Shown here: positions 25,087 to 56,248 of the stretch, one piece after another
Numbering within the stretch: position 1 is the stretch's first letter
Layout of the letters: the number at the start of each line of letters is the position of its first letter
Assembly: GCF_964204645.1 (NCBI RefSeq)
Contig: NC_134029.1
Span: 12,426,850-12,490,849 of the forward strand
DNA length: 64,000 nt
Direction of reading: 5' to 3'
Source: Tubulanus polymorphus
Lineage: Eukaryota > Animalia > Nemertea
The notes under the pieces: generated by a model
The model's input: only the letters and a program-made list of their open reading frames with translations
Told to the model about the DNA's origin: nothing
Database searches by the model: none
Program-made: the position numbers and the translations under genes

Positions 25087-25087
25087 A

Positions 25088-25105: not shown

Positions 25106-25107
25106 AA

Positions 25108-29486: not shown

Positions 29487-30783
29487 CTTAAGCCTTAAGG
29501 TCGCGTAAAACTCGATAAACACTTCAAGCGACACAGCGAACGATCCCTTTCCCCCACAGCGAACGCTTACTCCGAATGTCAAGTGTGAGTCCAGCATACG
29601 GATAGGAGTGTGTTATATACTTGTATTTAGTAAATACCTTGTGCATTTGACAATGATCGGTATGTACTGTAGGAAATATAGAGTATTGATGGTATTGATA
29701 TAGAGGTTGAAGCCCGCGGCCGAATAAAGTAATATATTCTTTTATTTTGATACCTCGTCGACATAACAGCTTTTCTCCGTTATATCTCTTGTTTAGTTTA
29801 GGCCTACGACTCCCCGGTACACTTATGATTTATCTTAGTAAATACACGGTTAATTTGGTAAAGAAAAATAGGTATTGCTAAACTAACTGCTTGACGCCCG
29901 CAGCCAAATCACTGGTAGTTATAAATTAATTTGTACTCGATTTGATTCTCATGATGAGGAGAAACTCGCAGCTGATCCCCGGAACGACGATGTAGTAACA
30001 CACGTCTGTTGGAGTAGTATTCAGGGAACCGCTTGAATCGAGGAACCGGTAGATGGCGGGTCAATCGCTCATTCAATAGATGGCGTTCCTTTCATCAGTA
30101 GGAGCAATGGCTGCCAATCGAACTGTAAATATCGAAAAAATGCACTCAAAAAATGATGATAGGATGAGCTTAGCCTTAGGCCTTAATTTCAAGCTAGATT
30201 TTTATGCTTCCACCGTGCTCGAATTTAGGGGATCCAGAAGGGAGGTTTTACCTGGATCAAAGTTCCGTGACGAATGAGGTTGTGTAACAACGCGCAAAAT
30301 CATGCGGAAATCTTTGCTGCATGAATTGAATGTACTAATTACACTTACAGCGCCCTAGGCTACAAGCCATGGATGAATCAAATTGTCTTAATTTGGACAA
30401 AGTTCTATATTCGGCCTATCCCAGTTGGTTTTAGCAAGGTTCCACTGATTGATTTATTCTCTTGAACTTTGAAACATGCCATAATAGGAGCCCTAAATCA
30501 ATTTGGTCTTAATTTGATAGTACCGATACCAAAGTCGTCATTGAATCAATTTCTTTCAATCTGAATCAGAGCAGAGAATACTTAATGAACTATGCCTAAA
30601 TCAATTTTAACAATTTGTTCACGTGCCCAACGTTTTAAATTAATCTCAAATCATCAAAAATATGGTTTATAAGCATGGAAACAGGAAACATCTCAAGAAT
30701 TTCAAACCTTTTCTCTTCAACATGAGAAAATGAAGACTTTTTGACAATCCTTCAATGCCATGTGAAAAATCAATGGATATAAA

Positions 30784-33700
30784 ATGATGGTAGGCCTATA
30801 TTGAGACTGCACAGTTTCACGGGTGGTATTTAATTAAGACCAAATTTGAGGTATGTGTTGAAAAGATTAAGCAAAATATCCCCAAAAAATTGGGTGCTGA
30901 TCAGGCCAAATATGAAGGCACTTTGGGTCTTTGAGGGGGTCCCTGGACTCGGGGCCAAGAATAGTCCCCAGGGTTGTATTGTAAAGCCACCAGGAGTCCA
31001 TTTACCTGTTAGGGGGGTCCCTGGGCCCGGGGCCAAGACTCATCGGGCAAATGTGATGAGGGTTTGGTTAATCGTAAAGGGGTACACCCTGCAGGTTCTT
31101 GTTAAATTTAGCACTAATCGGACCACAGGTAAAGCCACCAGGAGTCCATTTATCTGTTAGGGGGGGTCCCTGGGCCCGGGGCCAAGACTCATCGGGCAAA
31201 TGTGATGAGGGTTTGGTTAATCGTAAAGGGGTACACCCTGCAGGTGCTTGTTAAATTTAGCACTAATCGGACCACAGGTAAAGCCACCAGGAGTCCATTT
31301 ACCTGTTAGGGGGGTCCCTGGTCCCGGGGCCAAGACTCATCGGGCAAATGTGATGAGGGTTTGGTTAATCGTTAAAAGGTACACCGTGCAGGTGCCTGTT
31401 GAATTTAGCACCAATCGGACCACAGGTAAAGCCACTAGGAGTCCATTTACTTGGTAGGGGCCAAGACTCATCGGGCAAATGTGATGAGGGTTTGGTTAAT
31501 CGTTAAAAGGTACACCCTGCAGGTGCTTGTTGAATTTTGTGCCGATACAAGGTAGTTAATCTGTAATTGATTGTTTCATTGTAGGTGCTTCCTCCAGGTC
31601 TTAGAAACCCTGGTAATGTCTGTTTCCTCAATTCTGTCGTGCAATGTCTTCGGGCCACCCGAGGCTTTTTACATCGCTTTTTTAAGAAAGCATGTTCGCA
31701 GCCCTGTAGGCCTACCTGCAATGCATGTAACATTCAGCAATCGTTACTTGGCAACACTGAGCCACTTATTGATAACATAAAAGGTATGTATAATTTTCAT
31801 TGCAGTTTTTAAATGACAGACTTGTATGATAGATGAAACAACAATTTTTGATTGAAATGGTTTTAACTTGCAGCGTTGTTATTTGACAATTGTTGTTTCA
31901 CTGTCGAGTTAGAATATCTACTTAATTCACAGTGGATAAGTACATGCCTATTGTCAGACAGACCATCAAATTTGTGTCTGAATGAAAGGTCAAGGCAACG
32001 TGGGCTCCAAAAGCACAAGATAAATCCATGGGCACAAGATTATCAGTAGGTGAAGGAACTACATTACAGAGCCGCAGCTTTCGATGTTCCTGAGATCGTA
32101 CATAGTCTCTATGGGCATAGAAAATCTCATAGTGTTCATACGATTATTCTTGATGAAAAGAAACGTGGGTTTTTTGCTAGCATTGAAGTGCATGTAGCAA
32201 TTTTGCGATCTTTATCAGAAAGCATTGTTATTGAATATGACTCCCTATGTACTTTTGTAATTATATTTTCCAGACTTCGTGGTCGATGCAGAAAAGCACC
32301 AACAGCAAGATGTGATGGAATTTTTTCATGGCGTGTGTTTGAAAATCAAAGAAAAGTAATTATTTTGTTCTCATCTTTTTAGCCAACTTGGTACCCACTT
32401 GGTACCATCCCCCCTGGTAGGGCTTGAAATCTGATGGCATTGATTGAGACTTGCCACTTCATGAAACCTTACCATACTAGACAGAGAATGCAGCTTAGAA
32501 GATGCAATTATAAGCCAATCATAAATCCTGATTAATTTAAGCCCAGGTTTTTCCATTGATAGTTTATCTGTGAAATTATTCTCGGTGATTATTCAATCAA
32601 TCTGATTGGTGCCGCAAGTTTTCAAACCTGCATCTAGTGTGGCAGAGTTTCGTGCCGCTGCTAAGTCTAGCAATGCCATCAAGTTCTTATCCCTGCCAGG
32701 GGGATAACTTAGGATTTACATCCCACTTCTTTCATCATCTGTAGACAGAATCTAGTTTTCAATACGCTTTGATTATGACCTTTCCAAGTCATAGGTTTGT
32801 GCATATATGTTCACCAGAGGGCATTGAATTTTGAAATTGTCAGATGAAATTGTCAGATTGTTGACCAGTTCAGATGGCGCGGTGTCCTTGGACCTCAGAC
32901 CGGCCTGGTCAGAATCAAGATGGCCGACTGGTGCTGGCACTGTATCGTGGTTCAGTTCATTTTTCTAATCAAGACAAAATCTACTCCTACCTTTAATTGC
33001 ATTCCTGTTTCGTTATCTGATATAAGCATTTCATAAGGCTGTGGTAAACCTCTTGGCGCATTATTATTATTATTTCAAACCACCTTCCAAGTGGGCATGG
33101 TATCCCTATGGACCCCTAGTCAACTTTTTACCCTAAGAGGTATGGGTATGATTTCCATATTTTACTTTTTCATACTGGTATATTTTGTGATCAATCTATT
33201 CTGTATTTGCTGTCACCTAGCGTACTATATTTTCAGTTTTCACTTTTGTTCTCTCTAGCTTCACTTGTGTATTTATTTGCAGAATGCCGCTTTGTTTTGA
33301 ATTTGTGCTGAAAACAACAGGTAGGTCGATGTGACTTTTCACAGAAAATTGCTGATATTTTCCTAATCAATTTTTGTAATGATGTAGCTATCCATTTGCA
33401 GACACTTGCCTGGAATGTGGAAAAGAGAGCATACGTCAGTCGGAACATTTGAATATGTCTTGTGCCATCGAGGTGAATATTAAGAATGTATTATATGCTA
33501 GTATTAGAAATTGCTCCACTGTTGTTGGATTGTATACAACCATGGAAGATGAACCGTGTCGACCCCTGATAGATTCAAACAGCTCATATCAGTGACTTGG
33601 AATTAATTTTGACCAGTTCCAAGATATACGGATATTCTGATTATGTGAAAAATTGGCCTTTAGTGGGTGTGGCAGGAGGTGGTATATCGCGGGTTTGGTT

Positions 33701-36700
33701 CACTGCAAGTTTTTTTAGTAAAATAACAATAATTACGCAGAAGCTCATCTGCAATTTGACTTATAATAGTGGTAGGGCTACAAGATCTGTTAATGCAAAT
33801 ATGCTTATGGTACCTAGAACACTCATTAGGTCTGGTGATCATGTCTTTAAATCTTATGGACCTCGTTTATGGAATACACTTCCTGTGGATATGAGAACAA
33901 TTGTTACATTGAGACATATAAAAACTTATTTAAGAATTGTCTGTTTAAAAGGGCCTTCCTCGACCAAGAGATAGCACAGTTAGCAAGTTTTTCAGTATAG
34001 TGCTTTACAAATTACTTGTGCTATGTCAATGACAAACCTATAATTAGATTCATCTTTGAATTCATTTTGTAGTCAGAAGAACGGAAAGCATTCCAGACCA
34101 TTCAGGAATGCGTAACTAATTTCTTCAGTCTAGAGGAGGTGACGGTTCGGTGTTCAGAGTAAGATATCAAAGATTAAGTACCAGTATACTCTCTTTCAGT
34201 CCACTTCTAATACAAATGATGTAACCTTGTTATTCTTATAGTATTAACAACTATAAGTTTGGTTGTGTGCACTGTATATGTATAACCTACCGGTAAATAT
34301 CATCAGATATAATACATGTCCCCACTTAATCCATCAACAGGTGTCCGTGTGAACAAGCTTTTCGCTTTCAAGAACTTGTGAATGCACCTGATTTCATTGT
34401 CATTGATTTGAAAAGGTTAGCCATGTTATTTGTATTTTTTGAGCTGTTTCACATCGTAAATTTGATAATATCTATAATGGAAATATAATGATAATATATA
34501 TAATATATGAACTTTCTAATTGAAATACTTATAATGGATTTCATATAGATATCGTTGGTTCGGCAATGCAGGGAAACTCATGCACCACGTAAACATTGGA
34601 AAGAATTTAGATATTCTTGTTGGAAATGATCAGGTAATCTTCTACTATTTCACTTGGAAGTTGTTTAAAACAATGTAAAACGCTTGCATGACATTGTGGC
34701 ATGCTCTAGGGGAAATTTTTTCCCAGTTACGTTTTAACTCCTGACACTATTAATCATTATAATCAGTATTACTCAATAGCGTATTTTATTATCATGATCA
34801 TTTGAAGTGCTTTGATCAAAGTAAATCTTGAGTGTCAAGAATCAGTCATCATGTTTTTTGTATGTGTGATTTCAGTATGTTTATGAGTTATATGCTGTCA
34901 TTACTCATCGAGGTGTCGAGGTAACCAGTGGGCACTTTGTTGCGTATCTGAAAGTTCTGAATGGTTGGGCTCTTGCCGATGATGATAATGTAAGTTTAGC
35001 AAATCAATAATGAAATGAAAGCTAATTTATGATCAAAGTATGATTTGGGTCGTTGAATTCTAATGCAGTTCATGTTAATACAAATGTATTCCAAAACCTG
35101 TCATCAATTAAATCTATTGATATATAATGAGATTAGGCTATACATTATTTTTTCATCTGTCAGGTTTCCAGTATGAGAGCTCCAATCTTTCAAGGAGGCG
35201 AGCCGTATGGTTGCTTTTACGAAAAGAAAATTCACTCTGTAAGTACAATTTGCTTATTCATATTGATACACGGATATATGTATCAATAACCACAATCAAT
35301 TGCAAAATTGTAACTCCTGGTGGCTTTACCTGTGGTCCGATTAGTGCTAAATTTAACAAGCACCTGCAGGGTGTACCCCTCAACGATTAACCAAACCCTC
35401 ATCACATTTGATTAGTTTTTAGTATATGGTCACCAGGGGACATTGAATATTGGAGTATTCTGATTGTTGAGCAGCATTTCAAACCACATCCCATGGTGTC
35501 CCTGGATAGTTTAATATTGACAAGTTCGATCCCTACGTTATCTTGACTTAAGCACGTACAGAAGATTCCTATCTGTTTAATCAATCACATCAGTTTAATA
35601 AAAAAAAAGACCTTGCCTACAAGGCTGTCAAATTTGTATTATCATGTATAGTATATATTTAGCCCACATTTGATTTGTGAAGTGTTAGAAATTTTCTTAT
35701 CATTATTACTATAAGATATATCATTTATTATAGAGGTTTTGATTCGCAATTATTGTGCAAAGCTTGGAGCACAGGTTGACATGACTACAGTTTTTTATGT
35801 ATTGCTCAGCCTTTTTTTAAATGTCTTTCAATTCATATATTGCAGGTTTATACATCAGAAATGCCTCAAACTGTAAGTAGAAATAATTTATTTCTTATTC
35901 CTGAATTGTACCTCATTGGGTTTTGAACCAACTTTTGACGTATGTGGTCCTGAGCTTAATTTCTATATATAAACGTCTGAATCAGACAGTGATTATGTAT
36001 ATTTGTGACAATTTGCTGAAATCTAATTTACCGGTAGTTAACTCAACCTATGTTCAACGGAGGAATGATAAATTGCTGATCTTAGTTAAGATTCAAATAG
36101 ATGATTTGGGGAATTAATACACTTATCATATCGAAATTTGTATGGGAAAATTTAGAGGTTTAACAAGTTTTGAACCTATGAGTTTTAGAAGTTTTGTAGA
36201 AAAAGATTTTTAATTAATCATTGTTTAAAGTTTGGCCCATCACCATAAGAAAAATTTGGTCGATCGGACTCAAGTTGGCAGTCCTATGACCTTTTTAGTG
36301 CCCAAAAATGTCAATTTTGGCACAAATTCTGAGTCCTGTAGCTTCTTACTGGTTTGCCATTTCTCATTGCAATTTGTGATGGGTATTCTTTGGACCCCTA
36401 GTTTGTGTGGCGAAAATGGACCGTGTTTAACATCTCCGGTTCGTTTTCGTTACAACATCTCATCCTTTCCTCCGATATCTCCAGGTGGAGCGATTTCATA
36501 TATATAAATATGTTTTGTATTGTGTAAATTTGTATCTGTGTACTACTGTCAATTTTTCGGGCGTCTCGTTACGGTCTATCGCGTTCGGGTTGGGGGTTTT
36601 GGTCGGTTTCTGTCGGGAAATAGCACGATCACATCTTTTTATTCGGCTTTTATCATAAATTCGCGCTATGACATTCTGGTTACTTACCGGCAGTCTATTC

Positions 36701-39700
36701 CTTTGTATTCGCTTTTCAATTTTGAACTGCCGTTTTGTGATGTCATAATCCCACTTTCATCATATTTCCGTAGTTTGATTTGTTCTCATCGGTTTCTCGC
36801 TCGCGAGTTGAGCATTGTCGCACTGCTAGGCGGCTCACTATTATTGCGCGCGGATATCAAACTCGGGTTTGATTTTCAAATTCCGCTTTTGACCTTTCAA
36901 ACTTATTCTTTTGGCATTTTTATCGCGTATATCGTGATATCCCTTACAAAAAATCACTCATGTGATTTTTTAAAAAACACGTGTGATTCACATGTGTAAA
37001 AATGGGACATTATCACACATGTGATTCTGTATGTGAATCACACGTGTGATTTTGTATGTGAATCACACGTGTGATTTTGTCCCATTTTTACACATGTGAA
37101 TCACACATGTGATTCACATGTGATTTTGTCCCATTTTTACACATGTGAATCACACGTGTGATACAGCCCTGAATGTAAATCACACATGTCATATAACACA
37201 GTTATGTGTGATTTATAACGCATGTGATCTGCAGTCATCCTCATTGTTCCAGCTCCACACGACTGTATTCAAGAAGAAGTATAAGTACACATTCATAATG
37301 GTCAAAATTTGACCTCTTCCTTCATTGGACATGATGTTTCATCCATACTTCACAATTTCCTAAAAACTCATTGCCTGAAAGGAGATCTGCATATTGGCAA
37401 AACGAAATGAAGTTTCAAAATTACCAACCAAATGTAATAACTCACTTGTGTAAGCTTACATGTTAATGGGAATTTTATTTTCAAATATTTACAGATTTAC
37501 TTCGTCAATTTATACTGTTTCAGCATTTGTCCAATCTTCTTTCTAATTTGGGCCGCGGTAACCCCCAATCTACAATTCAGAACATGATCTGGAATGAGAC
37601 AAAATTATAAAACATTTAAATACTACACACAATTCCAAACAATAAATCAATAAATCAATATCCCTAATATCAATCATCTGATGAAAAAAGCCAAAGTTAC
37701 ATTATTATGATAAGTGAAACCAGACGAAAAACGGCGCTATTGTAACACTAGCTTATAAATTTTTTCAATCAACACTTACCATAACAGGGCTCAAAACCTC
37801 TTTTTCAGTAATTTGTTCCGGCTGAAAGTATACGTTTCATTCTCCGTGTAGATAAATTACTACTCGAGGAAATGTACTGACTCCCTAGATTAATAACGGA
37901 AAATTCCATTTTAATTTGTAAATGATTCATTCCAATGTAGAAAGAATTGGCAAATACTGTTCAATACCGGCTGAGCATTCAGTTTAGGAATGATACAATA
38001 TAGCATTAGTATGCAAACGAGTGTCTTATTCCTGGACATATCGTGATTTAAAAATAGTTCATGGTGTAATCTAGGCCTACTTGTTAGGCATGGACATGTT
38101 GTACTTTGCATGCATCAATCATGTCCATGAAATAAAGTTTGGATGAATTTGATTTAATTGATTGATTGGTACACGCCACTGATTTTACCGATTACAGTAC
38201 ATTCAATTAACATCATCGACTATGAATATTTGACGAAACACAATAATACTTGCTTTTGAGCTTGGATTCAAACACCAGACTTTTCGAACTAAGAAATTAA
38301 CCATCAAAATTGATTAAAAACAGCAACGACTATCCTCGAAATAATTGCAAATGGCGCCGTGCGTGCCTGCATGCTCATTCCAAGTCCTTTGCTAGCCGTC
38401 GTCAACGGTTCGAATCCCGTAAATACCTGCTAATTTTTCGAAGTCGTTTTTGAATATTAATATTTTTTTAGAACTCAACAGCGAATGTAAAAACATATCA
38501 TAACCTTATTTTATTCATTTAGCGGAATGAAAATACAAACTCACTAGTCCGTGGACATTGGTTCTTGGTTTTTGCACAGTAGGGGTGTCAGTGTTAGATA
38601 AAATCTAACCATGTGTTGAAAATGTTGAAATAATGAGTACAGTTATGGAAATATTCTTATTCCAACATGGATTCTATGACTAAAATGCAGATGTTCAGAA
38701 TTTGGAACCAACATGGGAATGGTTCATATCCGAAATATTCACACTGTGTTGTAGATTGGAATAACTGATGTTAATCACATGTGTTATTCTAATGACACGC
38801 GTGATCCTAGCGGTTACACATGTGATCTGTGTTGTTGAGCCAATCACATGTGTGAATCACACATGTATTTCTCAATCACACATGTATTTCAGAATCACAC
38901 ATGTGATCATGTGTTATTCACACATGTGATATGCTCCACAACACAGATCACACATGTGATAGCTGGAATCACATGTGTTTTCTGTGTCTTTCACACCTTT
39001 CACACATGTAATGTGTGTTATTCACACATATAACATGTGTGAATTTTTTGTAAGGGATCACTAATGGCCAATGAGCGCCCCCGGATTTCTATAAAATGCG
39101 GGTCGTTCGAGCACAGTCATTCTGATTTTCGAATCACACGCACGTACTTATAGTATCAGCGAACAACTTACAGCAATTAAATTCTTAATCGAATATAACT
39201 ATTAAAATGTAAGCGATAAGAGACGCGCCCTCTCTATCCCGCCTTCGGGTTGGATAGGGTCATCTTGTCCAACCCGAAGGATGAGATATATTCACTTTTA
39301 GATCGTCCGGCCAAGTTAGATGTTGACCGAGTTTGATTTTGGCCAAGTTTGATTCCGGCCCAGTTTGATTTCAACCAAGTTTGATTTTTTCGGTCTCCTA
39401 GTCTAGCAAAATCTACCGACCGAGAGCGTCACTATGATGGACAGTCATGATCAATTTTGTTTAGTTTAGTCGAGCTGACTTTTGTTCATACGTAAAATCA
39501 TTTTCCGGGCGTATTGATCGTCACATCATTTTCAACTACGACTGTATTGATCCACTCTCGGTCGAGCGATTTTGCTCCGATTGTATATAAAATATATATG
39601 TTTCTACATTTGAGCGCGATTGAATAATGATTTGAGATCGTCGCTATAATTTTCAAATCATCTCTCACCGTACGCCCGAATAAGGTGACTCTAACGTAAT

Positions 39701-42700
39701 TTCGTGACTTCGTATAATTTGACGTTCCTGACGCGAGACCGTACGGAGATGCACCCGAGGTGTAAACTTTATGAACTGGAGAAATGATTAAATTCAGGAG
39801 TTCAACTCTTGACATGATTAATTTTATACAAGTCTTACATTTTCGTCTTTTCTGAACAAGGAGAGGAGTTCCACCGCTATTTTCTGTCTCAGTGCCAATT
39901 ATTATTATTCGTCTTAATGAGAGGACCAGTTCGATCGGGGACGTATCGGCAGTAGTTAGATGAAGACCATCAATCGAGGATTCGAACCCCCAATCTTTGT
40001 ATCGACTGACGGCCTTTATCCAGGGGAAGTCATGACAAAGTGTCATACGGAGCGAACGGTAGATGTTGGGAGAACTAGGTTCGATCGCGTGCGAAATCCT
40101 GGCCAGGTAGTCGCCTACGAGGATGCTGAGCCCTGATCATGGAATGAGAAGACTGAATATTTTTATTTGATTATAATTTCGACAAGAACTGATATCTTTT
40201 CCCTGAGGAGGAATTACTTCCCCCAATATTTTCGCATAACCCGATTATATTGTCTCAGGGCGAACCCTAGTAGCAAACGCCTATTGCATCTATTATATAC
40301 GTAAACATATAAAGACCCGCTACCCAGGAGAGATACGCTACATTTGCTATTCTACCAGTTTGGATGGATTACCGAATAGACTAGTACCGTTATAGGCCGA
40401 CTCTACTGTATATCACTTAGGGCGAGACCGCCACCTCTACTGTATATCACTTTGGGGTGAGAGGACGTTAACAGAATTATCCAACTCAAAACAGAACAAA
40501 CTATATTTTGAAGAAGAATTCACGATTGATTTTTATTAATTATCTTATGTTGCGATACATCATAGGACGATTCACACTGTAGAGCATCAAACATTCGATT
40601 TAACAACTTAAATATCGGTATAAACAGAAGATGCTACATATTCACATAGTTTCAAGCTGCATATTTACAATTTCATATTATAATATTCATTGGCCCTGTT
40701 ACTTATTTGATTGGTATTTTTTTTTCATTTGGTATAACAAACTCATCACACCTTCTGGAGACAAAACAGGGGCTTTGATTTTGAAATCAAAGATTCACAT
40801 ATAGTTGTGTGATTGGTGGTCAAATAAACAGAGTTTTCTTGTGGAAATTTTATGTTTTGGTAGTTTTCCCTGTATGAATAGTTGTTTTTAAACCCAACTT
40901 CGTACAATACCATTATAGTTTATCAATGTTAGCTATGCATTTTGTTATTTTAGATAAATACATCTCGGGGACCATCAGCTCTCAGCGACGATGTGTATGA
41001 GATCATGCTTTCTGTGCTAAGTGGAAAGAAGATGCTCTCATCATATCCAGTTACTTCCGGTGACAAAAAATATGATGCTGTGCGCAAAAATGCTGCAAAT
41101 AAGTTATCTTCAAAAGCTTACATATGTCAAAAAGTTAACAACAAAAATGAAATTATATTCCTAAAAACGAGAAAAATTATTCCAAAATCATCAGCCATTG
41201 CCTCAATTATTGATCAGTACCACACGAGCATGGCTGGATCAGGTTCATCCAAATTAGTAGGAGCAATCAGCAGCAGTTTCCATGGTATATCAAAGCAAAC
41301 TATCCAAGATCATCTTAATTCGAAGCCAACGCACACGATACGGAATCCATTATTTACGAACAAGCCACCTATTAAGAATATAACAGCATCTGCTCCGATG
41401 AGCCGGGTACAAATAGATTTAGTACTAATGGAAGAAGTTGAGAACGAAGGATCTACGTACAGATATGTGTGCAGTGTGATTGACGTATTTAGTAGGTTCC
41501 TTTGGTTACGCCCAATTCAGAACAAAACATCGAAAACGGTGGCCGAAGTGACAAAAAATATATTCTGTGAGTTCGGCAACCCGCAATACGTACAGACCGA
41601 TAATGGAACGGAATTCAAAGGAGAGTTTGATTCATTTTTGAAGACTGCAAAAATAAAGCATATATTTGGTTCGCCTAGGCATCCCCAATCACAAGGAAAA
41701 GTAATGATTATATTTTGATTGAAAAAATTGGGAAGTAGTTTTTGTATTACAAATTTAACAATGTTTTTACCGTTCTTTACAGTCCGAAAGATCACATGGG
41801 AGCTGGAAGAAGATGCTTCGGTACCTACTCGGGAGAGATGATGAGACAAATTGGGTTGCGCACATTCCTGAGCTCCAGAGAATTATGAATCAACGATCAC
41901 ATAAAGCATTTTGTATGTAATTAGGGTATTCTGCCTACCTTTGTTAGAAACCTTATTGTTATCCTAGCTATCATAATAATAGCCCTACTCCTCTGTTATT
42001 TCTAAACTGCAAATTTGCAGTATAGAAGATACTACACCTTAATATCTACCGCGCTGGAACCGGGTGTATTGTACCTTTCAAATTTTAGGGGTCCAAAGAT
42101 AGATATACCCCTTGGCAATAAGCTTCGTGCGGTATTGTCATCACCTGTCTCCATCTGGGCAGGGTGATGTGAAATAGGCATTATGGAACTCGTTCTTGCT
42201 CTACAATCTACACTTTTTAATGATTTTTGTATGTGTATGAAACTTGTCAGGAATATGTACCCTATTACAATTTTGTGATCTGAACATGACTCACTCACTG
42301 GCCGAAGGGTATTCGTTACGTATGTCTGGTTTAACCAGGCTTTTCCTATCAATTCATCTGCTATGAAAATACTAATTTTCTTTTTCAGCCGATAAGATGA
42401 CTCCTTTCGAAGTATTTTTTGCCAGGAAGCACAATCAAGGTGAAGGCCTTCAAAATGGTCAGATGACGAAAGCAGACTCCGTAGATGAAGAAAATACTTC
42501 AGATGTGGCTTCTTCAAATGTGAATACAGTAAAACCCCTTGCATGAATACCTCCCTATAGTGAACACCTCCTATAATGAACACCCTATGTGCGGTCCCAA
42601 AACCTAAAATACATGCATCAGTACTTATGCGTTAACACAGTCATAGACGCAGTATTACATCAAGATCATGACCTCCCTATAGTGGACAGTGAGCACTTTT

Positions 42701-45700
42701 TCTAGTAGAGATGGTCCGTTATGGTATGTGCCAACCTGGCTATTTAGTCACTTCGATCACACATTCTGCTCAGGTGTTGTACCAAACTATCTCTCTAAAG
42801 TACTTGGATAATTGATGCGATAAGTTATCCTACTTTAATGAAAGTGTATTGCAGTCATGATTTAGATCAATTTAGTGTTTGGCTGTGTAGTTGTGGATTC
42901 ATAAGAACATACCTGGTGTCGTCCCATGTCACATCATTACCTAACCCTCCCCATAGTGAACACTTTGCTTGGTCCCGATGGCGTTCACTATACAGAGGCT
43001 TTACTCTACTTCAGATGTGACTAGTAATAATACATGTTGATGATGTGTTATATAACACATGAAACTTTTGTACTTTAAAATTTCAAGCTCACTGCCTGGG
43101 GGAATGAATCCGCTTCAAAGCGAAAAGCAGCTGAAGCACTTTCAACTGTATATAATGCTGCAATGGTCAAGGGACATAAGAATAGATACCCTTGTTCCCA
43201 GTATGAACCTGGACACCGTGTTTTGGTGAATGTAAGTACTTGTTAAATCTGCATTCTTTCATCCAGTGTGGAAATAAAGCTTGAAATGCTTTTATCTTCC
43301 ATTTATACACATTGTGTATTCAATCAACATTACTGGCTTAGGGGTATTGCCATCTGTCAGGAAGAGAATGCTCCTGCTCTAAAGTCTACTTCTGTTTTGA
43401 ACCAATTTTCTGATTACATGGTAGGTGAATAATGGATGGAAGATGTGCTGTATTGTTTTTACTCGTGTAGATTATCCAAGATAGCCGCCACAGCTATATT
43501 TATAGAGCCTTCATAGTGTAGCTCTAGTTACATTTTATGTACAATTATTAAAGAATTTACCAATTTTCAACCCCCTCCCTATATTTTACAAACTTCCAAA
43601 AAATCTGCTTCCCCTAGTACGTGCAATGAGTTCTAAATCAGTTTATCATTATCAGGCAACAGCAATGAAAAAGACGAAACTTTATAGTAAGACTGGGCCA
43701 AAGTGCCATAAAGGAGTCATCCTAAAGGTCGGTAAAATGGGAAGAAAGTACCAAGTCCTGGTCAAAAATTCTCTGTTGTGGGTGGATATTAGTATGCTGA
43801 CATCCCTGACAAGGATGAAGCAAAAGAAGCTTTTAGGAACTAAATGTAAGTACTAACGGAATTAACTGTTTCCAAAAGTGCACTGATTCATTAGAATTAT
43901 TCACACTTGCATAAAAGAGGTTTTACTGTAATTACTGATGAATGATGTTGTTTTATTCTATGACAGCTCCTCTAAATAGATATTGTATGTGTGTTTCCAA
44001 GTGCAAGAAGACAAGGGCACCGAAGTGTGAAAACTATATGCACAGAGACTGCTGCAAGAGTGCAGGAAAAAAGTGTGCTCTTCACAATATCCTGTAAGTA
44101 ATCATCCGATTGATTGATTTGTAGATAGATGAAATTTATCTGAAATTTATCTCAAGTGAGTGGTGAGAATTATATATATATATATGGTGTATCTGCACAT
44201 ATTCTGTCTTTTATAACACGTTCTCAATATACTCGTAATGGCTCAAGTCCATTATAGCATTAAATAGTTCCAGCAGAGACTTATCACATTGGAACGGTAT
44301 TTGGAATTAATCCGCCAATATTGGACTGATTGAATCTTACGACATTACGCCATAGGGACGTGCGAACATACCGACATACCGACAAACCGACGAACCGACA
44401 AACCGACGAACCGACAAACCGACGAACCGACATACCGACGAACCGACATACCGACGAACCGACAAAAAGACAAATCCGTGCGTGGATTACCCTTATATAA
44501 AGTGGCTGGGATCGAGGGGCTGCGTGGTTGCGTGGATTACCCTGGTTATATAATGTGGCTGGGATCGAGGGGCTGCGTGGTTGCATGGATTACCCTTATA
44601 TAATGTGGCTGGGATCGAGGGGCTGGGTGGTGCGTGGATTACCCTTATATAATGTGGCTGGGATCGAGGGGTTGTGTGGTGCATGGATTACCCTTTTATA
44701 AAGTGGTTGGGATCGAGGGGCTGTGTGGTTGAGTGGATTACCCTTATATAATGTGGCTAGGATCGACGGACAGGGTTTTTCCGTGGATTACACGTGGCTG
44801 GATCGAGGGCATACGAGTTTGTCGGTTTAACGGTATGTCGGTTTGTCGGTTCGTCGGTTTGTCGGTATGTCGGTTCGTCGGTTTGTCGGTATGTCGGTTT
44901 GTCGGTTTGTCGGTTTGTTTTGAAAAATACGCAGCCGAATTACTCCTTTTCTAAAAATGTATCCTTGAGCGGGAACTATTCCACGCTATACTGGACTTGA
45001 ACCCTGGTAAGATTTTATGATGGCTTATATGATGGATTTAATGGACAACTATGAAAGTGTATTTAATTGAGAATGGTTTTCCATTTTAGGGGTGATGAAA
45101 CCATTTCTACTGAAACCAGGCACATTATGGATCGCGTTGTTGGTGAGGTAGAGCATTTTTTGTGAATTCTGTCAAATCAATCCTATCGGATCTTTTCATT
45201 TGAAATCTTCATTTAGAGTACCAGATCTATTTAAGGACTTGAATTGTTGTGTTAATGAATATACATAATAGGAGGCTAAACTTTGCCATAATTTTTCAGT
45301 TTAAGATAGTTGCTAATTCGTAAGTATTTTTTGGCTCACACCAAATCATGTGTATACAAGTGACGCATGCACATGGTTTCTGTTTTGATTTTCACACCAT
45401 TTAATTTAATGTGAGTGGTTTAAATTAATTCGAAAATAACAGTTGGTATTATTTGTCAAAGGGTATATATATATATTTACATCTTGGTGTATGTGCACAT
45501 ATTCTGCCTTTTATAACACGCTATCAATGTGAAACACATGTATTTACTTTAATCTCTGCAGGTGCTTTAGCGTATGTGTCTGTGTGTCTGGAAGACACAT
45601 GGACCAGTACACTATTGATATCTTAACAAATCATATATCATATTCTTTGATTATCCCGTGATCAGTTTACGGTCTAGGTATTGTGTCATTGCTTTTTAGC

Positions 45701-47806
45701 CAACTAGTCCCAGCGGGCTATGAAGGTTCAGTTTGTAGGTCCGTAGACAGAATCCAGTTATTTAAGGAAGTTTTACAGATGCTGCGGTAGACAGTTGATA
45801 GTTAAGCACTTCAAACCAGCTCCCAAGTGGGCAAAGTGGGCCTGCACCCCTAGTCTTAGTGTATTTTTCTAATTCTGCTACACTATGCTTTTACGCTATG
45901 TATGTAGTGAAATAATCATGTAATATCCATAAAACCCCTGTGTGATCACATTAATTGTATCGTTTTTCTTTAACATTCCAGTTGAATGCAGACACTCATC
46001 ATATTGATCAATGTGCGCAACAAATATCTGATAAGATTAAAGCTAGTAACAGGTAAGCCATACTATAAACTATAACTGTAATGGTTTGCAATTTCCACAC
46101 GTTAATTCATACCAATATCTCATTCCTGAATATTTCAGCTCTGATCAGGGTGACAGCAACGCTCACAAGCAGGGCGTGGAAGGAATGATGACTCTTATTA
46201 AGACAGTGAAGTGAGTAGTCATGATGAATGTACAGTCCACCCCGATATCCCGCCCTCCCCGCCTACCGCCAGGTTTTCTCCATGTACATCTCAAAACACC
46301 TCCGATATACCGCCATACTCTCTATAGTGTCATACTCTCTATACCGCCAAAATCGTTCTGCACTGATGTGGGCGCAGTATACCAGGGGTTGACATTAGTG
46401 GTAAAGCAAAATTATTTTGATATTAGACACTGGTATCAAACTGCCTCAAGCTTTATTGTATTTAATCCTAATGGTCTAAGAGCAGTCAATGGTAAAGTAT
46501 GAATCATTTTTACTTACAGAGATGTTTCGCAGCTAGAAGATAAGCAATTAACTTATTTGGTTATGCAGAATGAGTGCTATTTGAGGAATATTTTCCAGGG
46601 AAAGGTAGTGTACTTAAAATAATCATATATACCAGTCATTAGCGATTAATTTTGTGTTCAGGTGTCGTACAAAACTATCTCTCTAAGGTATTATATTAGT
46701 CTTCCATGACTGATATGTATCACAGTATTCATTACTTGTAGTCAACAGTAATGCTCATTTTATATATATATACTTTTAGACTAAATGTCGACGCCATGAA
46801 GACTACAAGAATGGCGGAAAGAGCAGGCGTAAGTTGAAAATTAAGTACAATAACCAGTAACTAATACCCTGGTAACCAAGTGTTTATGTGCCTTGCTTAC
46901 TGTATTTCAGGTAACTTGACCTTGCAAGTACCAATCACTTTGTACAGTGATGCGCAATGTGATGTAATAATAAAGGGATTAATGGACATGTTTTGCCCAA
47001 CTGATACGAAGGTTTGTATATACCGGTAAAGCTTTAAGTAATTTACCCTAGTATATCAAATATTGCGTATGTAACCCACTTAAGTGAGCCATTTCTGTGT
47101 AGACGAAATATTTTGGGTTGTTTTAAATATGCTTCAATGCTTGTCTCGCTATGTTCACCAGGGGTTGTTTAATAGTAGATGTTCCATCCTCCCCCGGCAG
47201 GGTTCGTACCCGATGGCATTGGCACAAAACCCTGCCACACTAGACTGAGTGCGCAGCTACCAGGCAGCTTAGATGATGACATTATTAGCAAATCAGATAT
47301 CCCGGGTTTTCCCATTCTTAGTTGTTCCGTGAAATTTACCTCCGCGATTCTACAACAAGCAATCTGATTGGTGCCGTAAGTTTTCGCGTGGCAAAGCTGC
47401 ACACCCGGTCAAGTGTGGCAGGGGTTTGTGCCGTGTGGCTGAGTGAAGCGATGCCATCGGGTTCGAATCCCTGCTGTGGGAGGATGTAGATGTACCTGCA
47501 TATATTGTTATATTTTGTATGTACTGCATTTTAATGTCATTGATTCCTTAATTTGTTCACAGGGGGCATTGAATATTGAAATTGTCTGATTGCTAAGCAT
47601 TTCAGCGAATGTGCATGTTGTCTCTTAACACTTTGTTAGCCCGACCTCACCAAACTTTTGAATTATATTTTCAGTACATGGATTATGTGTTTCGAGTTTT
47701 GTTGCCAGAAACACTGATAAAGATCTATATGGAGGTCCATCAAACATCACATGAACTAGCAGAAGAACGCTTGGCCGATGCTCTTTTGGGAAGTGAAAGT
47801 GATTAA
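30784..47806 (+). CDS. Spliced USP(C19)-integrase fusion transposase, ~974 aa, ~26 exons
   Basis: GT-AG exons with consistent phase and no internal stop: 30784-30789 (tentative), 31585-31783, 32274-32355, 33283-33320, 33402-33472, 34073-34158, 34341-34415, 34549-34633, 34876-34989, 35164-35238, 35846-35872, 40954-41700, 41783-41912, 42389-42519, 43088-43231, 43656-43845, 43967-44093, 45090-45147, 45300-45319, 45562-45571 (tentative), 45982-46052, 46139-46210, 46520-46604, 46780-46828, 46911-47011, 47675-47806 (TAA). Confidence 0.72.
30935..31545. repeat. ~148-bp tandem repeat (~4 copies) in the first intron
   Basis: AAGACTCATCGGGCAAATGTGATGAG recurs at ~31035, 31184, 31332 and 31463. Confidence 0.9.
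31585..35238 (+). CDS. Ubiquitin-specific protease (peptidase C19) domain, 9 exons
   Basis: Cys box GLRNPGNVCFLNSVVQCL (Cys 31621); QQQDVMEFF; finger pairs CLEC and CSEC; PDFIVIDLKRY; His box YELYAVITHRGVEVTSGHFVAY (His 34933); WALADDD; YGCFY. Confidence 0.9.
32378..33120 (-). mobile_element. Decayed Helentron/HINE-like copy containing a palindromic MITE (~32406-32706), intronic
   Basis: The end TTCAAACCACCTTCCAAGTGGGCATGG...GGACCCCTAGT is the reverse complement of the start of the 1247 element. The inner MITE resembles 47185-47486. Confidence 0.5.
33750..33960 (+). pseudogene. L2/CR1-type LINE ORF2 3' fragment in an intron
   Basis: RATRS...LMVPRT...GDHVFKSYGPRLWNTLPVDMR resembles the L2 C-terminal GDRAFSxxxPxLWNxLP motif. 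Confidence 0.65.
35313..35410 (-). repeat. Inverted partial copy of the intron-1 148-bp repeat
   Basis: Reverse complement of 31197-31294 with 2 mismatches in 98 nt. Confidence 0.92.
36230..36404 (-). mobile_element. Internally deleted Helentron/HINE-like fragment
   Basis: Reverse complement of ~2185-2340 joined to the element start GGACCCCTAGTTT. Confidence 0.6.
36941..39056. mobile_element. CACTA/EnSpm (CMC)-like non-autonomous element
   Basis: TIRs CCCTTACAAAAAAT ... ATTTTTTGTAAGGG, 2-bp TSD AT, dense subterminal CACATGTG repeats at both ends. Confidence 0.75.
40954..43845 (+). CDS. Retroviral-like DDE integrase (KRBA2/SCAND3/GingerRoot type) and its C-terminal region, 5 exons
   Basis: RVQID (D 41416), VIDVFSRFLWLRP, QTDNGTEF (D 41599), HPQSQGK|SERSH (E 41786, across an intron; D34E), NWVAHIP, TPFEVFFAR, YEPGHRVLV, WVDISMLTSLT. 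Confidence 0.9.
42527..43006. mobile_element. Tc1/pogo (Tigger-like) MITE in an integrase intron
   Basis: TA|CAGTAAAACCCCT ... AGAGGCTTTACTC|TA, with internal inverted TATAGTGAACA motifs. Confidence 0.55.
44240..45003. mobile_element. Palindromic MITE with inverted 8-bp microsatellite arms and a ~52-bp central minisatellite
   Basis: TIRs GGCTCAAGTCCATTATAGC / GCTATACTGGACTTGAACC. (ACCGACAA/ACCGACGA)n on the left, its reverse complement on the right. GGATTACCCTTATATAATGTGGCTGGGATCGAGGGG repeats in the centre. Confidence 0.7.
45693..45853 (-). mobile_element. Minimal Helentron/HINE-like remnant retaining both ends
   Basis: AGTCCCAGCGGGCTAT...AATCCAGTTATTT...TTCAAACCAGCTCCCAAGTGGGC...CCCCTAGT matches the reverse complement of both ends of 1247-2659. 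Confidence 0.55.
47185..47486. mobile_element. TIR MITE with a 9-bp TSD in the last intron
   Basis: CATCCTCCC...GGGAGGATG with long imperfect arms; flanks TAGATGTTC / TAGATGTAC. Confidence 0.7.
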
Positions 47807-49957
47807 GACACTGAAAGCTGATCAATTGCCATATCTATAGTCGTTATTACGAGGTTCCACTGTTACATGATTGAAGTGTATGTTCCATCCATGCTTTTCG
47901 TAATTGACTTTGTGTTTTACATAGAGCAAAATATTTTTCATATACGTGGCAATGTACGTTGTATATTATAATTCATTGATACTGAAACAAAGTAATTTTG
48001 TATTGGTATATTAAGTATGTTGAACTGTTCTGACAATCACATATCACTGATGTTTTTCATATTCTTTTTTATTGTTTGGTGAAAACGAAAACATTCAAAT
48101 AATGTACGTAGAGTAGGTATTGGGTTAGGAAAATTTTATCAACAAAACAAACGTCCGTTGTGTTTTGTCTTTTATAAGCTTCGAGAGAACTAAGTATCAG
48201 TGGATAGAAAGAGGTACATGTATATAATATTCCTGTGTATATATTTTTTAATGTCAACGCAGAGGGATGTAAAATTAGAATCTTGTAAAATTGACATGTT
48301 CATTTTAAAAGAGATTATACATATGGTTATTATATTAATTTGGTCCTTTAGATGTAATATGCATTTGTATGTTTACTGATATATTTTATATGATAATAGA
48401 GCATAATTCAGACACATACATAGATGTACTGGCCATATCTTTTATCCTATTTTTATCAAATGTCAAAATGCTCAATAACATATTAAATCATTTCATACTT
48501 ATAACTACATATCTAGCTCTGTTTTCGAATAGATCTGAAGTTAACTAGTCTACATATCATATAACTCAATAAAAAGTCTAATTCACTTAGGCTTAGATGC
48601 ATGAAATCAAAATATTTGATATGCGTAGTATGAAAACTTGGGCCTAGTCAAATGTTTACACTAAATTTGGCTAAATGAAATAGATTAAAATACTTACCTG
48701 TAAATATCAGCGAATAGAAAGAGTAAGATATATAAAATTCATGTGTATATGTATCGAGAGATTTAAAATCTGAATAACTTTCTGAGTCACTGCGACTATA
48801 TATCTACCCTTGGGCTAGCTGGTGTCAGATGGCCTAATATTTAATTAAATACAAACTATTCGTGCAATCGATCGCTATTACTCGTCGATTACTGCACGCT
48901 ATTACTACCTTGTTTGAGTGTATCGTCAAACCGCCAGATTGTATAACATTGATAATGGATAAGTTTGTTTAATGATAATAGTGATAAATATCAATTGAGC
49001 AAGATGGTAGATACACAGGTGCTCACAGTAATTCACAGTTTTAATTCGACTGATTTTCCTGAAAATTGAGACAAAACAACGTGTTTGCCGATAAATAATC
49101 AAAGTAAAATAAAGTCTGCCTTTCCGTCTGCCATCTAAACTTCGCATCAATGAAAAACTGATATTATCAGATTGACACATGCATTTACAATAAAGAATAT
49201 ATGTGAAATTAAGTGTTGCTAAATATTTGTAATATGCTCACACTATACATGCTACGTTTCACAAGTACGATCGTCTTTCCAGTATGCATAGCAATTTAGT
49301 TATTTTTTGAATTACACTACTTATATTTTCTAGACGAATCATTTGTAGTGCATTTATGAATGACATAAATAAAGGTATTTTGTATTAATTAAGTTTGGTT
49401 TCAATTGTTTTTATGCCATTCTTTGTAACAAGGCTACGTACGTTGCTGACGAGCAAAGAAGATTGCATACAGATCGTTGCAATTCCTAGATACGATTCCT
49501 GTCAATTAAGTTCTCTCTATGTTTGTTGTAAAAAATACGTTCTGGATCTGGAACTTGGCAATAAGCAAATGAAACATGGTGTATAGACTGCCAAAAGAAC
49601 TATCGTTTCAAGAGCATCGCCACTAGGAATAATCATCTAGAAATTCGAGGAAAAGCTGTGCGATTTGTTAGGGATAAGTGAATAACTTAAATTTCACAAT
49701 TTTCAAAGATTGCCCTAGCTACGCTTATAGGGGTAGGAGATAGAAAATATCTATGCACGTTGTATGTATATTCGAAAGAATACCCACAATGAGCTAGTTT
49801 TTTTGTAATTTATACATGAAATATCAAATTAACATATAACTGAATAGTGCATGGAGATTTCATACACTAGTTTGTTAGTTATTCGAATCAAATGTTTCGT
49901 TGAAAGCACTGGCTTGAAATTATGTTTTTGTTGTTATAATTTTGAATATGAATAAAC

Positions 49958-51553
49958 GGTTGTAGGTAAAAATCCCCTGGGTAAAAATCCCCTAGGTAAA
50001 AATCCCCAATTATTCAAAGTAGGTAAAAGTCCCCCACCTTTTGAATGGAGTCCAAATTAGATACAATTTTAAGGTCAATTTATTCGTATTAATATATTCT
50101 ATTTATTATTTACCTTATAATTGCGTTACATAGAAATATCATGTATAGAAGTTATCGCATTTCAATGAAAAATACAAAATTAGAAGTTAATTAATTCACA
50201 AAATCGCATCACAATAAAAATTACAAATTGGTTGTTCATTAATACTGTATCGCACAAAATATAAGTTAAAAAGAAAACAATCGCACAGTTCAAACATATT
50301 ATGATTTTAATTTTCAAAAAGCACTCTAAATTAAAAGTCTATTTATAACGCACAGCTTAAATAATATATCACAAGTAAAAAATGGCTCATCAAATAGGTA
50401 AAAGATATTACATTTTGAAGTTTAAAAAGTATTACAAATTAGAAGTTAATTAATGTACAAAATCGCATCACATTGTAAATCACATCGCACAGTACTGCAT
50501 CGCGCAAAATATAAGTTAAAAAGAGGTCATCGCACAGTTCAGTTTTATTTTCAAAAAGTACTCCAAGTTAAAAGTTACTTTAGTTAACGTTTATCAATTC
50601 TAATTTCCAAGCGGAATGTTATGACCCACACCACGCAGGAAATCGGCCATATTCAAATGTCCATCATTGTATTGTCGACACAGTATTTTTAATCGTTCGT
50701 GTAACGGACGATGGATGTTGCTAACCCGTCGTTGTGGAACTCCACCGATGGCGTTTTCCATTATCTTGGTGCTTGTGACACTCTGTTCCATTTGAATGGT
50801 ACGGATGGCGCGCCATATAGAAGGGTGTTTGTGCCCAATCAAATTGCGGAATCTGTTGTTCCATCCTTCTGAAACATTATTAGTTTTGGGGTCAGAGTTT
50901 AAAGTTGCTCGATTTACGTTCCATCTCTCGGGTGCGAATCTCGGAGCAATTCTCCGTATTATGTGTCGATTCTCTTCTCCGATTCTTCTTTCCCTATATG
51001 TTCCATTAACATATGTCGCATCGAAGTAGTTAATAAGAGGATCACAACCATCTGGGGCAACATCTCGTAGATGTTGCATTCCCGCCACAACATCCGCAGT
51101 GGGAAGAAATGCCAAACCATCAAGCCCACAGAATAACTTGAAATCGTCCTCATTCTGATACCTGAATACATAAGAGTAAATGAGTCAACAACAATTTGTA
51201 CAAAATCATTCAATTATTTTAAAAATTAAAAAAAGGTCATTTTCTTACCGATTTGCCATCCCGAGCTCTTGTATCTTGCGCCAGGTTGATTGTCTTAGGT
51301 GATAAAAACAACCCTGAATCTGCAGTGCATCGCCGAAGACAGCTCTTAACGCGTGATGAACATCTCAAAGTCCACTATAACTGTATCGGGATCAATACCA
51401 TCGACATTTTCACTGATGGCATTGAACAAATCCTCGTATGTACCTTCTGACTTCCGCTGTAAGAATGTGTACACTAAAGGAACTGTTATATTGTCAACCA
51501 AAGGAGCATGGATGACATACACCTGAGAAAAAAGTGGTGGTGCCATCGCAAAG
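49958..51553 (-). mobile_element. Truncated Mutator (MULE) transposon, one TIR plus the 3' part of the transposase
   Basis: TIR GGTTGTAGGTAAAAATCCCC with internal repeats at 49958; transposase remnants upstream on the minus strand. Confidence 0.8.
50600..51553 (-). pseudogene. MULE transposase pseudogene fragment (two exons, 5' truncated, frameshifted)
   Basis: FAMAPPLFSQVYVIH...VPLVYTFL...KSEGTY...IVDFE; FYHLRQSTWRKIQELG; AFLP...YFDATYV...WNV...TNNVSEGWNNRF...HPSIW. Confidence 0.88.
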
Positions 51554-51659
51554 TTCACAAAGGATATTGGTGAGGAATTAAAAACTTGAAAGCAGCAAGC
51601 GGAAAACAGTTCGATTTAAATTTTTCGTAATTCAAAGTAAGCATAGACAAAGAGCTAAC

Positions 51660-52342
51660 GGTTGTAGTTAAAAGCCCCCTCTGTAAAAATCCTCTAGGTA
51701 AAAATCCCCAAATATTCAAAGTAGGTAAAATTCCCCACTTTTCAATGATGTTCAAGAACATTTCAAAGCAAAATGTTTCTGAAATTTTATTTATTTGCAA
51801 TGAGATTGAAATATGTTTGAACTGTGCAATGAAATCTTTCGTTGGGGTGAATTAGTTAACTCTTAGAATAAGATAAATTGTTAGAATTAATAAGAATAAT
51901 GAACTTATTATTCTTTATATCGTACAATTCGAACTGCAATGGTATATTTTTGAACTGTGAAATCGTGTTAACTTGTATTTCAGCTGTGCGATGCCATGAG
52001 TTAATAGAAATAATGAACGTTTAATTTGAAATACTTTAGATTCAAGCTAGTGCGATAAATTTTAAATGTGCGATGAACCCTTTCATTAACTGCTATAACT
52101 TAAAGTACTAATTTGGTATTAATGAACTGTTAATTTGTTGTAAGTTTTAATGCAATTAGTGTATACTATAGTTTGTACGCTCGTGATATCCTTATGGTTT
52201 TCCACGGTAAAATATAAATAAATTGGATATGTGTATCTGAATTAATTTACCTCAAATTGTATCACTTCATTCAAAAGGAGGGGGATTTTTACCTACTCTG
52301 AAGAATTGGGGATTTTTACCTAGGGGATTTTTACCGCTAACC
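51660..52342. mobile_element. Mutator-family MITE
   Basis: TIRs of the same family as 49958; 9-bp TSD AGAGCTAAC / AGAGCTTAC. Confidence 0.8.
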
Positions 52343-52759
52343 AGAGCTTACAAGCCATTATACATTGAACCTTATTTAATCTAGATGACCCCGTAATTCC
52401 TTCAATTACGTACGTACACAATATGATCACGGAAAGCGTACCAGGTGATAACGAATAATTACTCGGCCACTATATATTGATATTACGAATCGATGTATTT
52501 AATTCGGTTATCTAAACTCAGTCTACAATTCTTTAAATCACTAGTTAATTAAAAGGGTTAGGGGTAAAAAAAATCACCTAGTTAAAGATCCCCTATAGGT
52601 AATGTCCCCTCGGTGAAAAACCCCAATTCTCCAAAGTAGGTAACCCCCTACATTTTGATTTGGAGCGCAAGTAGATACAATTTTAAGGTCAATTTATTCA
52701 TATTATTTACGTACTTCTACGAATCTACGAGCAATTATCTGAAATTCAAACCATAGAAC

Positions 52760-52933
52760 CACAGGGGCTCGTTTCAGAGTTGTAGATTATGTAAAAACGA
52801 TAATCTGTTAATGCAATGTATATAGTATATGTAAAATAACTTTATATATTATATTATTTTATATATACTATATACATTGGATTAACAGATTATCGTTTTA
52901 ACATTACCTACAACTCTGATACGAGCCCCTGTG
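52760..52933. mobile_element. Hairpin MITE (174 bp)
   Basis: CACAGGGGCTCGT...ACGAGCCCCTGTG with ~80-bp arms; flanks CATAGAAC / CATAGCAC (8 bp). Confidence 0.7.
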
Positions 52934-54941: not shown

Positions 54942-55231
54942 GATGGGCGTCACCAGGATTTTTTTGGAGTTCATTTTTAGGAATAAGGGGGTCTGGGTGT
55001 CCTCCCCAGAAAATTTTGTGCAAGCAGGCGTGTTCTGGTGCAATCTGAGGCCGATAGGTAGACTGGTTCCCGTTTATAGGTAGACTGGTTCCCGTTTACT
55101 TTGTCTTTGCATGTATTGATTTTATTTTGCTAATTTAGCAAATGCAAACCATGAGCCGACGTTCGTCGACGTTTGAAAATTCAAAAAAAGGGGGTTCGTT
55201 TTAACTACCGAATCCCCCTAGCGACGCCCAT
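54942..55231. mobile_element. Small TIR element, possibly hAT-like MITE
   Basis: ATGGGCGTCACCAGG ... CCTAGCGACGCCCAT inverted ends. Confidence 0.45.
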
Positions 55232-55981
55232 GATTACTGATACACACACAGGCCCAGACTGTGGTATTAACTTTAACCCGGGGGCCAACTCAATTAAGAA
55301 AAAAATTAATGTGCATGATCACCCAGACAGCATATTTCACAATAACAGATGTACACACTCTCACGAGCAGTTTCCAGCAAAAAATAAATATCTCCTATCT
55401 GTCCAGCAAGTAAGTAAGAAATGCTTGTGAAAACCAAGCAATGTGACATGTGACAATATAAGCATCCCAGGGGCAGATCCAGGCTGGGAAAAATGGGGTG
55501 GGGGTTCACTTTATATGACAAGGGCATTTTATCGTTGTGAAAAGTGTCCAGTCGCATTGAGTGGGGCAGGCGCGACACACCACTAAGCTGCAGACTTTTG
55601 TCATATGCTGAGATCATTTGTAGGGTGGAATCTTTTGTAGTGAGATTTTCTAAAGGGCTGGTCAGAAAAGGAGTTGCAACCCTGGATCTGAGCATCCCTC
55701 AAAACAAGTTAGACAATCCCGTCCGAAAAACTCCCAGTAATTTACTCTACATACCATACCGGGGCAAGTTGGTAGGCTCCAAAAGTTACCAAAACCATTG
55801 GCATTGCCATTTGGCCAGTGTCTATTTCCAAAGACGTTGGACTGGTTCAACGTCCCTTTGGTTTTGGAGATGATATCGATGATTTTGAATGATAGGACCT
55901 AAACATGCAGTAAATTAGGACATGCAAAAAATTAGCCAGTTTTGTTGAATAAGACAAGTGACGTGAAAAACATGACAGAGC

Positions 55982-56101: not shown

Positions 56102-56248
56102 TTTAGTTAAATGTTTAAATTCCAAAGCGGAACCAAGAAGTGACAGCGTAGCGCAGCGCACCTAGAGCGGCGCGCAGCCGTGAAGGTTGAAAATGACACC
56201 CTCTAGCGGTTCCTTGTTTGATGTGGTTCCTCGAATGCTACCCCGACA

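Follow-up and report, generated by a model that had tools for sequence, protein, structure and literature searches.

Inverted intronic repeats around the predicted USP exons of a Ginger2-like transposon in Tubulanus polymorphus: probably a recent templated copy

The genome of the nemertean Tubulanus polymorphus contains, within the 64,000-nucleotide window analysed here (NC_134029.1, positions 12,426,850 to 12,490,849), a Ginger2-like DNA transposon whose gene is predicted to join a ubiquitin-specific protease (USP) module to an integrase-type transposase. Inverted repeats lie in the introns on either side of the USP exons: a 148-bp tandem array in intron 1 and a 98-bp inverted copy of part of its unit, hereafter the downstream arm, in intron 10 (Table 1). 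A sequence-only reading of this locus had proposed that the two could pair in the pre-mRNA and loop out the USP exons, acting as a two-isoform switch, or alternatively that they mark the event that captured the USP. Does the layout reflect a selected switch, a relic of domain capture or an accident of repair? We consider it rather probable that the downstream arm is a recent inverted copy of a piece of the array, and that pairing between the two is a possible by-product and not a selected switch.

Re-measurement bore out the basic layout. The downstream arm matches the array unit at 31197 at 96 of 98 positions, those at 31048 and 31345 at 95 and 90 of 98, respectively, and begins 74 nt past donor 35239, as first reported; array homology stops 36-45 nt short of the acceptor AG at 31583-84, in agreement with the earlier value of ~40 nt. 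Tandem Repeats Finder delimited the array as 3.2 copies of period 148 at 30981-31460, with partial copies spanning 30930 to 31546. A comparison of every intron with every other in the 24-exon model (253 pairs) leaves array and arm as the sole long inverted match, the remaining cross-intron matches of more than 30 nt being all direct and at most 89% identical; the 98-nt arm match exceeds chance. The arm's ends fall within a 148-bp unit, not at the ends of the array. None of 16 weak Rfam hairpin matches, all below gathering scores, lies on the arms. The further short match pairing 31561-31575 with 35291-35305 is present as described but marginal, its score being reached by 31 of 500 shuffles.

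The arm lies inside a decayed fragment that is 74% like the element at 1254-1353 and 74-82% like the family copy in the window. The host repeat is whole at 1246-2665, and again near 8447-9800; the copy at 1246-2665 has a 155-bp core array, a GACG 4-nt microsatellite and a terminal palindrome, and its family has a high copy number, matching the HINE/pearl-like pattern of a central 140-180 bp tandem core, a 4-nt microsatellite, a terminal palindrome and high copy number. In the accessible text of PMC7492417, oyster Cg_HINE and pearl are non-autonomous Helentrons with central tandem repeats, and the arm-hosting family shares with them the core array, the 4-nt microsatellite and the terminal palindrome; the array's 148-bp unit differs in being undetectably related to the 155-bp core of that family. 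Derivation of the 148-bp unit from a diverged 155-bp core was rejected, since 415 of 500 shuffles matched its score. The alignment of the joined arm flanks to the host family was reached by 0 of 500 shuffles. As the 155-bp-core family aligns with the flanks but not with the 148-bp unit, the arm is a foreign piece in its host repeat. Seven fragments with this core lie inside the transposon, in introns 3, 10, 11, 18 and 23 (32781-47602), all in one orientation, antisense to the copy at 1246.

DNA reads of other samples were compared with the locus: X5 (raw reads of sample S3, ~12% of which were read), X1 (another sample), and X2 and X3 (together one sample). Runs X6-X10 contain hardly any of the sequence words of the locus, and no X6 reads aligned to it. 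In X5, 1190 host-family reads jump from 35316 to 35423, i.e. without the arm, which stands in place of ~36 nt of the host repeat unit and shares 3 nt with the host family at its right junction; the host flanks are 2000-4200 reads deep there, compared to ~10 for the gene. Since the arm is near-identical to an array unit inside a host fragment only 74-82% like its family copy, it is likely a young copy.

A total of 352 X5 reads fell on 35300-35425, with a depth of ~320 in the arm, 9-10 in the left flank and 11 in the right flank. Of the loose ends of these reads, 109 and 136 led into the array spacer, 10 into the array end beside the USP acceptor and 4 into other sequence, and 128 reads run from one array unit into the next. 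The arm sequence is confined to the array and one in-place copy at about element depth; its presence at intron 10 in other copies, which had been raised as a check, was thus seen in another sample. These loose ends and depths overturned a first reading in which both arms were pieces of a dispersed family. They bear equally on the explanation that a common dispersed repeat inserted twice independently, in opposite orientations by chance, for which the very high copy number of the arm flanks and the seven fragments in the gene's introns could be invoked. With 4 foreign-flank reads against 245 spacer and 10 array-end reads in X5, and no other arm in the 64-kb window, the common dispersed family that would have counted against the sequence-only reading was not borne out, and independent insertion is already largely refuted and highly improbable.

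In X1 the right arm junction appears at single-copy depth (69.4); a contig across the left junction was not seen there, nor one across either junction in X2/X3, holes that prove nothing. The array itself varies: depth ratios give 15-30 units per element copy in X5, ~10-16 in X1, 4-6 in S2 and ~4 in the window, rough values to which a separate array elsewhere may contribute. Compared with the array unit most frequent in X5, the arm has a single base difference, at 35381, where T, the array base, occurs in 299 of 312 X5 reads. This private arm base is common to the window, X1 and X5, and since it is constant while the array differs between samples, the arm is not tracking the array.

Two further observations concern read depth near the arms. 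A second sequence class with at least 4 differences extends across the boundary of exon 10 and intron 10 (35187-35313), accounting for 26 of 37 X5 reads at 35276 and for an X1 contig at twice single-copy depth; because only ~10 X5 reads carry the arm in place, most molecules of this class lack it there, and the class is probably a fragment at another locus. X5 depth is ~22 over 30600-32440 compared to 8-16 over 33176-36100, with variants at about half frequency, and a truncated or diverged second element copy is possible.

The explanation that we favour supposes that a 98-base piece of the intron-1 array served as template for an inverted copy within the decayed repeat in intron 10. The route may have been a template switch during repair; this mechanism, like the direction and recency of the copying, we infer. 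The accessible part of PMC8421209 describes MMB-TI templated inverted insertions, which arise via template switching from templates within 100 bp and which the arm resembles in being short, inverted and derived from a local template, with one of its junctions showing microhomology.

Several points weigh against such a copying event. The template lies 4 kb away, not within 100 bp, and microhomology is found at one end only, so that the exact repair route is unmatched by the events described there. The arm is not private to one sample but occurs in three or more (window, X1, X5), and the comparison is confined to near-identical copies in one species. As all seven HINE fragments share an orientation, the array/arm pair is an exception. 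The placement is also unlikely by chance alone, the arm being inverted and 74 nt from a donor in an intron that makes up 4.6% of the partner intron length; with intron 11, which likewise lies at the domain boundary, the share rises to 43%. The placement is notable, though singled out post hoc from a large scan. Intron 10 measures 607 nt and the array occupies ~620 nt of intron 1; both the closeness of the arms to splice sites and the "exactly" of the sequence-only reading owe something to these small introns.

If the repeats were instead the footprint of USP capture, their position on either side of the USP module would be explained. The arms, however, share 97-98% identity, whereas the USP is divergent and its exons are interrupted by 8 internal introns carrying old repeat fragments; the decayed insertion in which the arm sits, moreover, has to be older than the arm. 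A young insert in an old repeat, beside a USP spread over so many introns, is hard to reconcile with capture; this second proposal of the sequence-only reading fails, and we regard it as very unlikely.

Under the copying explanation the arms would be able to pair in the pre-mRNA, yielding some USP circle or skip product as a by-product. The computed arm duplex reaches -190 kcal/mol, and pairing is calculated to beat local folding by a net -123 kcal/mol, compared to -5 to -20 for 8 control introns. Skipping exons 2-10 is predicted to leave an open frame of 692 aa, and the predicted circle of these exons is stop-free over its 825 nt, with 5 Met per round. Stop-free circles can be translated by a rolling-circle mode. 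The proposed loop-out is partly supported: the arms are able to pair, while the fusion from which it starts is only a prediction. Provided that the gene is transcribed, a certain amount of USP circle or skip product would be plausible. In the accessible text of PMC4617980, the circle formed by exon 2 of Drosophila laccase2 is flanked by inverted DNAREP1_DM copies that are not conserved across species, ~100 nt of inverted repeat per arm is enough for back-splicing, and many exons with such inverted flanks do not circularise. The T. polymorphus pair resembles that system in having inverted repeat-derived arms near the outer splice sites. It differs in that it encloses nine exons making up a whole protein domain, lies in a transposon gene and has a variable tandem array as one of its arms; its circle, moreover, is a predicted one. 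That unconserved inverted transposon copies suffice there would fit a by-product of copying here as well.

The same calculations can be read in favour of a selected two-isoform switch, in which pairing is kept to loop out exons 2-10 and array length tunes the ratio; a 967-aa fusion would then be accompanied by a 692-aa transposase lacking the USP and by the 825-nt circle of the USP exons. The exact bracketing of the domain, phase 0 at both ends, the open skip form, the stop-free circle, the strong duplex and the arm in place in X1 and X5 all agree with it, and the skip form would resemble relatives without a USP, whose integrase starts ~1.0-1.3 kb from the left end. The arm, however, is young, lies inside a decayed repeat and shows no sign of tracking the array, and the USP-integrase fusion that a switch requires is itself only predicted. 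Phase 0 at both ends of the USP block was confirmed, but 12 of the 23 introns are in phase 0, and of the 22 introns that intron 1 could be paired with, 11 are phase-symmetric, as are 91 of all 253 pairs; because such symmetry is this common in the predicted gene, it is weak evidence. We judge a selected switch unlikely. Slightly more doubtful still is self-control of the transposon through RNA pairing, in which a switch between fusion and bare transposase would be coupled to a translatable 825-nt poly-USP circle, with array length (~4 to 30 units) as a heritable dial.

The gene model underlying these products comprises 24 exons with GT-AG at all 23 introns and has an open frame of 967 aa. The predicted deubiquitinase has intact Cys and His boxes of the USP type with their catalytic residues, and Pfam UCH scores above cut-off on exons 2 and 9. 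The Cys box matches USP21/USP2, similarity being confined to that box; a search for homologues of USP exon 2 found none (3 candidates). The start of the gene needs revision: the dipeptide MM, first taken as exon 1, is probably wrong, because a better phase-0 donor exists at 30125 (score 7.8 compared to 6.0 at 30790) and MM lies beside a dispersed-repeat remnant. The likelier first exon falls within a stretch that is CpG-rich (observed/expected ratio) and adjoins the element's left end. The skip frame is unchanged whether exon 1 ends at 30124 or 30789. Each array unit bears a donor-like site (31129, 31278, 31426; score 7.4), and one at 31552 scores 8.9, above the MM donor; the use of cryptic splice sites could vary with arm pairing or array length.

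Whether USP and integrase belong to one transcript depends on the 5.08-kb intron 11. Within it lie CpG-rich stretches and, at 39090-39123, the sole TATA+Inr match of the element, and an alternative acceptor at 37495 scores 10.5, compared to 8.4 for that of exon 12, and is followed by a stop and AATAAA at 37641/37649. Given this promoter-like content and the insertions in the intron, the predicted USP-integrase join is uncertain. Such features, together with a possible antisense exon at 37588-37501, would fit separate USP and integrase transcripts, with a terminal exon inside intron 11 and an integrase promoter of its own, in which case circularisation of a stand-alone USP gene is the most that the arms could bring about. 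The start of exon 12 speaks for the join: an in-frame stop directly precedes its acceptor and a conserved motif begins upstream of its first Met, so that it needs a phase-0 coding exon, and the exon 11 donor scores 10.4, compared to 6.8 for the best ATG-led candidate in intron 11. Separate transcripts strike us as improbable. The possible antisense exons in intron 11, 37588-37501 and 36745-36688 (both on the minus strand), have strong splice scores; neither has a Pfam match above noise, and Pfam did not confirm the BEN-like look of the first.

The transposon itself interrupts a tandem unit of which three empty paralogous sites lie in the window, at 4866, 7518 and 60242. Its terminal inverted repeats are imperfect (36 of 47 identical), with termini TGTTG and TGTCG. 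According to the portions available of PMC2836005 and PMC10045372, Ginger2/Tdd elements have a Gypsy-like integrase, TGTNR termini and short terminal inverted repeats, and lack YPYY and reverse transcriptase. The T. polymorphus element agrees in all these respects: exon 12 encodes a Gypsy-like DDE integrase (Pfam rve, 1e-17), both ends conform to TGTNR, and no reverse transcriptase frame of at least 90 aa occurs inside it. It departs from those descriptions in its length (26 kb compared to 2.7-6.7 kb), its degenerate zinc finger, its 23 predicted introns, a USP upstream of the integrase, and its duplication of 6 bp with symmetric ends (a single insertion examined) instead of 4-5 bp; exon 12 matches no H2C2 family, and no CxxC occurs at the position of the finger. 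Because duplication length and zinc finger depart from Ginger2, we call the element Ginger2-like.

Ginger1 transposases are described with OTU or Ulp1 domains in the available text of PMC2836005. The element is like them in combining an integrase-type transposase with a ubiquitin-family cysteine protease and in having introns; it differs in that its protease is a USP (C19) in N-terminal position, YPYY and GPY/F motifs are absent from the model, and its duplication, CACGTC, is not of the 4-bp CCGG type. A 6-bp duplication is also the value given for Polinton/Maverick elements in the consulted part of PMC10045372; no polymerase B, packaging ATPase or capsid gene was found among the long frames, heavily spliced versions not having been sought. 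Besides exon 12 (254 aa), the long frames in 30007-56248 comprise a 212-aa and a 199-aa antisense frame as well as a remnant of 194 aa.

This last frame, a transposase-like remnant at 50600-51184, belongs to a nested element with inverted ends at 49955-52335; it looks MULE-like but has no Pfam hit. In intron 17 (44340-44919), a 50-bp tandem array lies between inverted arms of an 8-bp microsatellite, making up a self-contained hairpin. On the minus strand, a two-exon frame of ~50 aa (54815-54582), followed by AATAAA near 54060, points inward from the element's right end.

Among related elements, of which the 56 longer ones of 150 listed were scanned for domains, OTU was found in 33 and Ulp1 in 1. 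UCH was found in none of these 56, a weak negative as gene callers break at introns, and is absent from the Atlas integrase clusters. No USP match was found at 86 related loci; of the 80 metagenome loci, only 9 extend as far as 3 kb upstream and 1 as far as 5 kb. End repeats gave an inverted pair at 7 of 34 metagenome loci, five of which span 4.3-4.7 kb, and these five are the relatives without a USP mentioned above; relative L015 has a 5-bp target-site duplication. An in-frame hydrophobic stretch directly precedes the integrase at 12 of 15 related loci, which include L001 (at 1460-1556), L009, L011, L012, L015, L016, L020, L023, L030 and L056; in 11 of these 12 it follows a Met (L001, L012, L015 and L020 are examples), and at 3 of the 15 an acceptor occurs at this position, as in the window. 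The stretch resembles a signal peptide, which would be odd for a transposase, and may partly be T-rich intron. We found no description of a USP-bearing Ginger-like element in the literature searched, including the accessible text of PMC6431247, Repbase and the element tables of paper supplements being outside the search; nor did a literature search, whose only return was an unrelated review, find a report of a DNA transposon that makes two transposase forms and a circular RNA via intronic pairing.

Elsewhere in the window, an open frame of 1837 aa (19747-25260, minus strand) is presumably a BEL/Pao LTR retrotransposon polyprotein; a 24-bp tandem is repeated at 19142 and 25250, suggesting LTRs. 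The insertions target a larger repeated unit, which accounts for most of the window and contains long 31-bp tandem arrays (953-29394 and 58545-59647).

Table 1. Coordinates of the transposon, its predicted gene and the inverted arms within the window.
Feature	Position	Strand	Remarks
Ginger2-like DNA transposon	30007..56248	+	26,242 bp; TGT...ACA ends
Target-site duplication CACGTC, left copy	30001..30006	+	
Target-site duplication CACGTC, right copy	56249..56254	+	
Likelier first coding exon (predicted)	30080..30124	+	ATG 30080 or 30107; phase-0 donor 30125
Candidate exon 1 "MM"	30784..30789	+	weaker; beside dispersed-repeat remnant
148-bp tandem array, upstream arm	30930..31546	+	intron 1; copy number varies among samples
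Short match paired with 35291-35305	31561..31575	+	marginal
USP (peptidase C19) block, exons 2-10	31585..35238	+	825 nt, phase 0 to 0
USP exons 2-6	31585-31783, 32274-32355, 33283-33320, 33402-33472, 34073-34158	+	
USP exons 7-10	34341-34415, 34549-34633, 34876-34989, 35164-35238	+	
Decayed high-copy Helentron-like (HINE/pearl-like) fragment	35287..35506	-	155-bp core; hosts the arm
Downstream arm, inverted copy of part of the 148-bp unit	35313..35410	-	98 bp; intron 10
Exon 11, linker	35846..35872	+	27 nt, phase 0 to 0; landing site of predicted skip
Predicted intron 11	35873..40953	+	5.08 kb; HINE fragment 36234-36394, 2.1-kb palindromic insertion ~36938-39058
Integrase-type transposase and C-terminal region, exons 12-24	40954..47806	+	stop 47804-47806; Pfam rve 1e-17

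The element widens the known range of Ginger-like transposons, with its 26 kb, its 6-bp duplication and a USP-class protease where OTU or Ulp1 have been described. The locus also illustrates, even without any acting pairing, how a full protein domain can come to lie in a circle-prone layout through a single short copying event. If the pairing does act, a DNA transposon would make two forms of its transposase, and a circular RNA besides, by base-pairing between its own introns.

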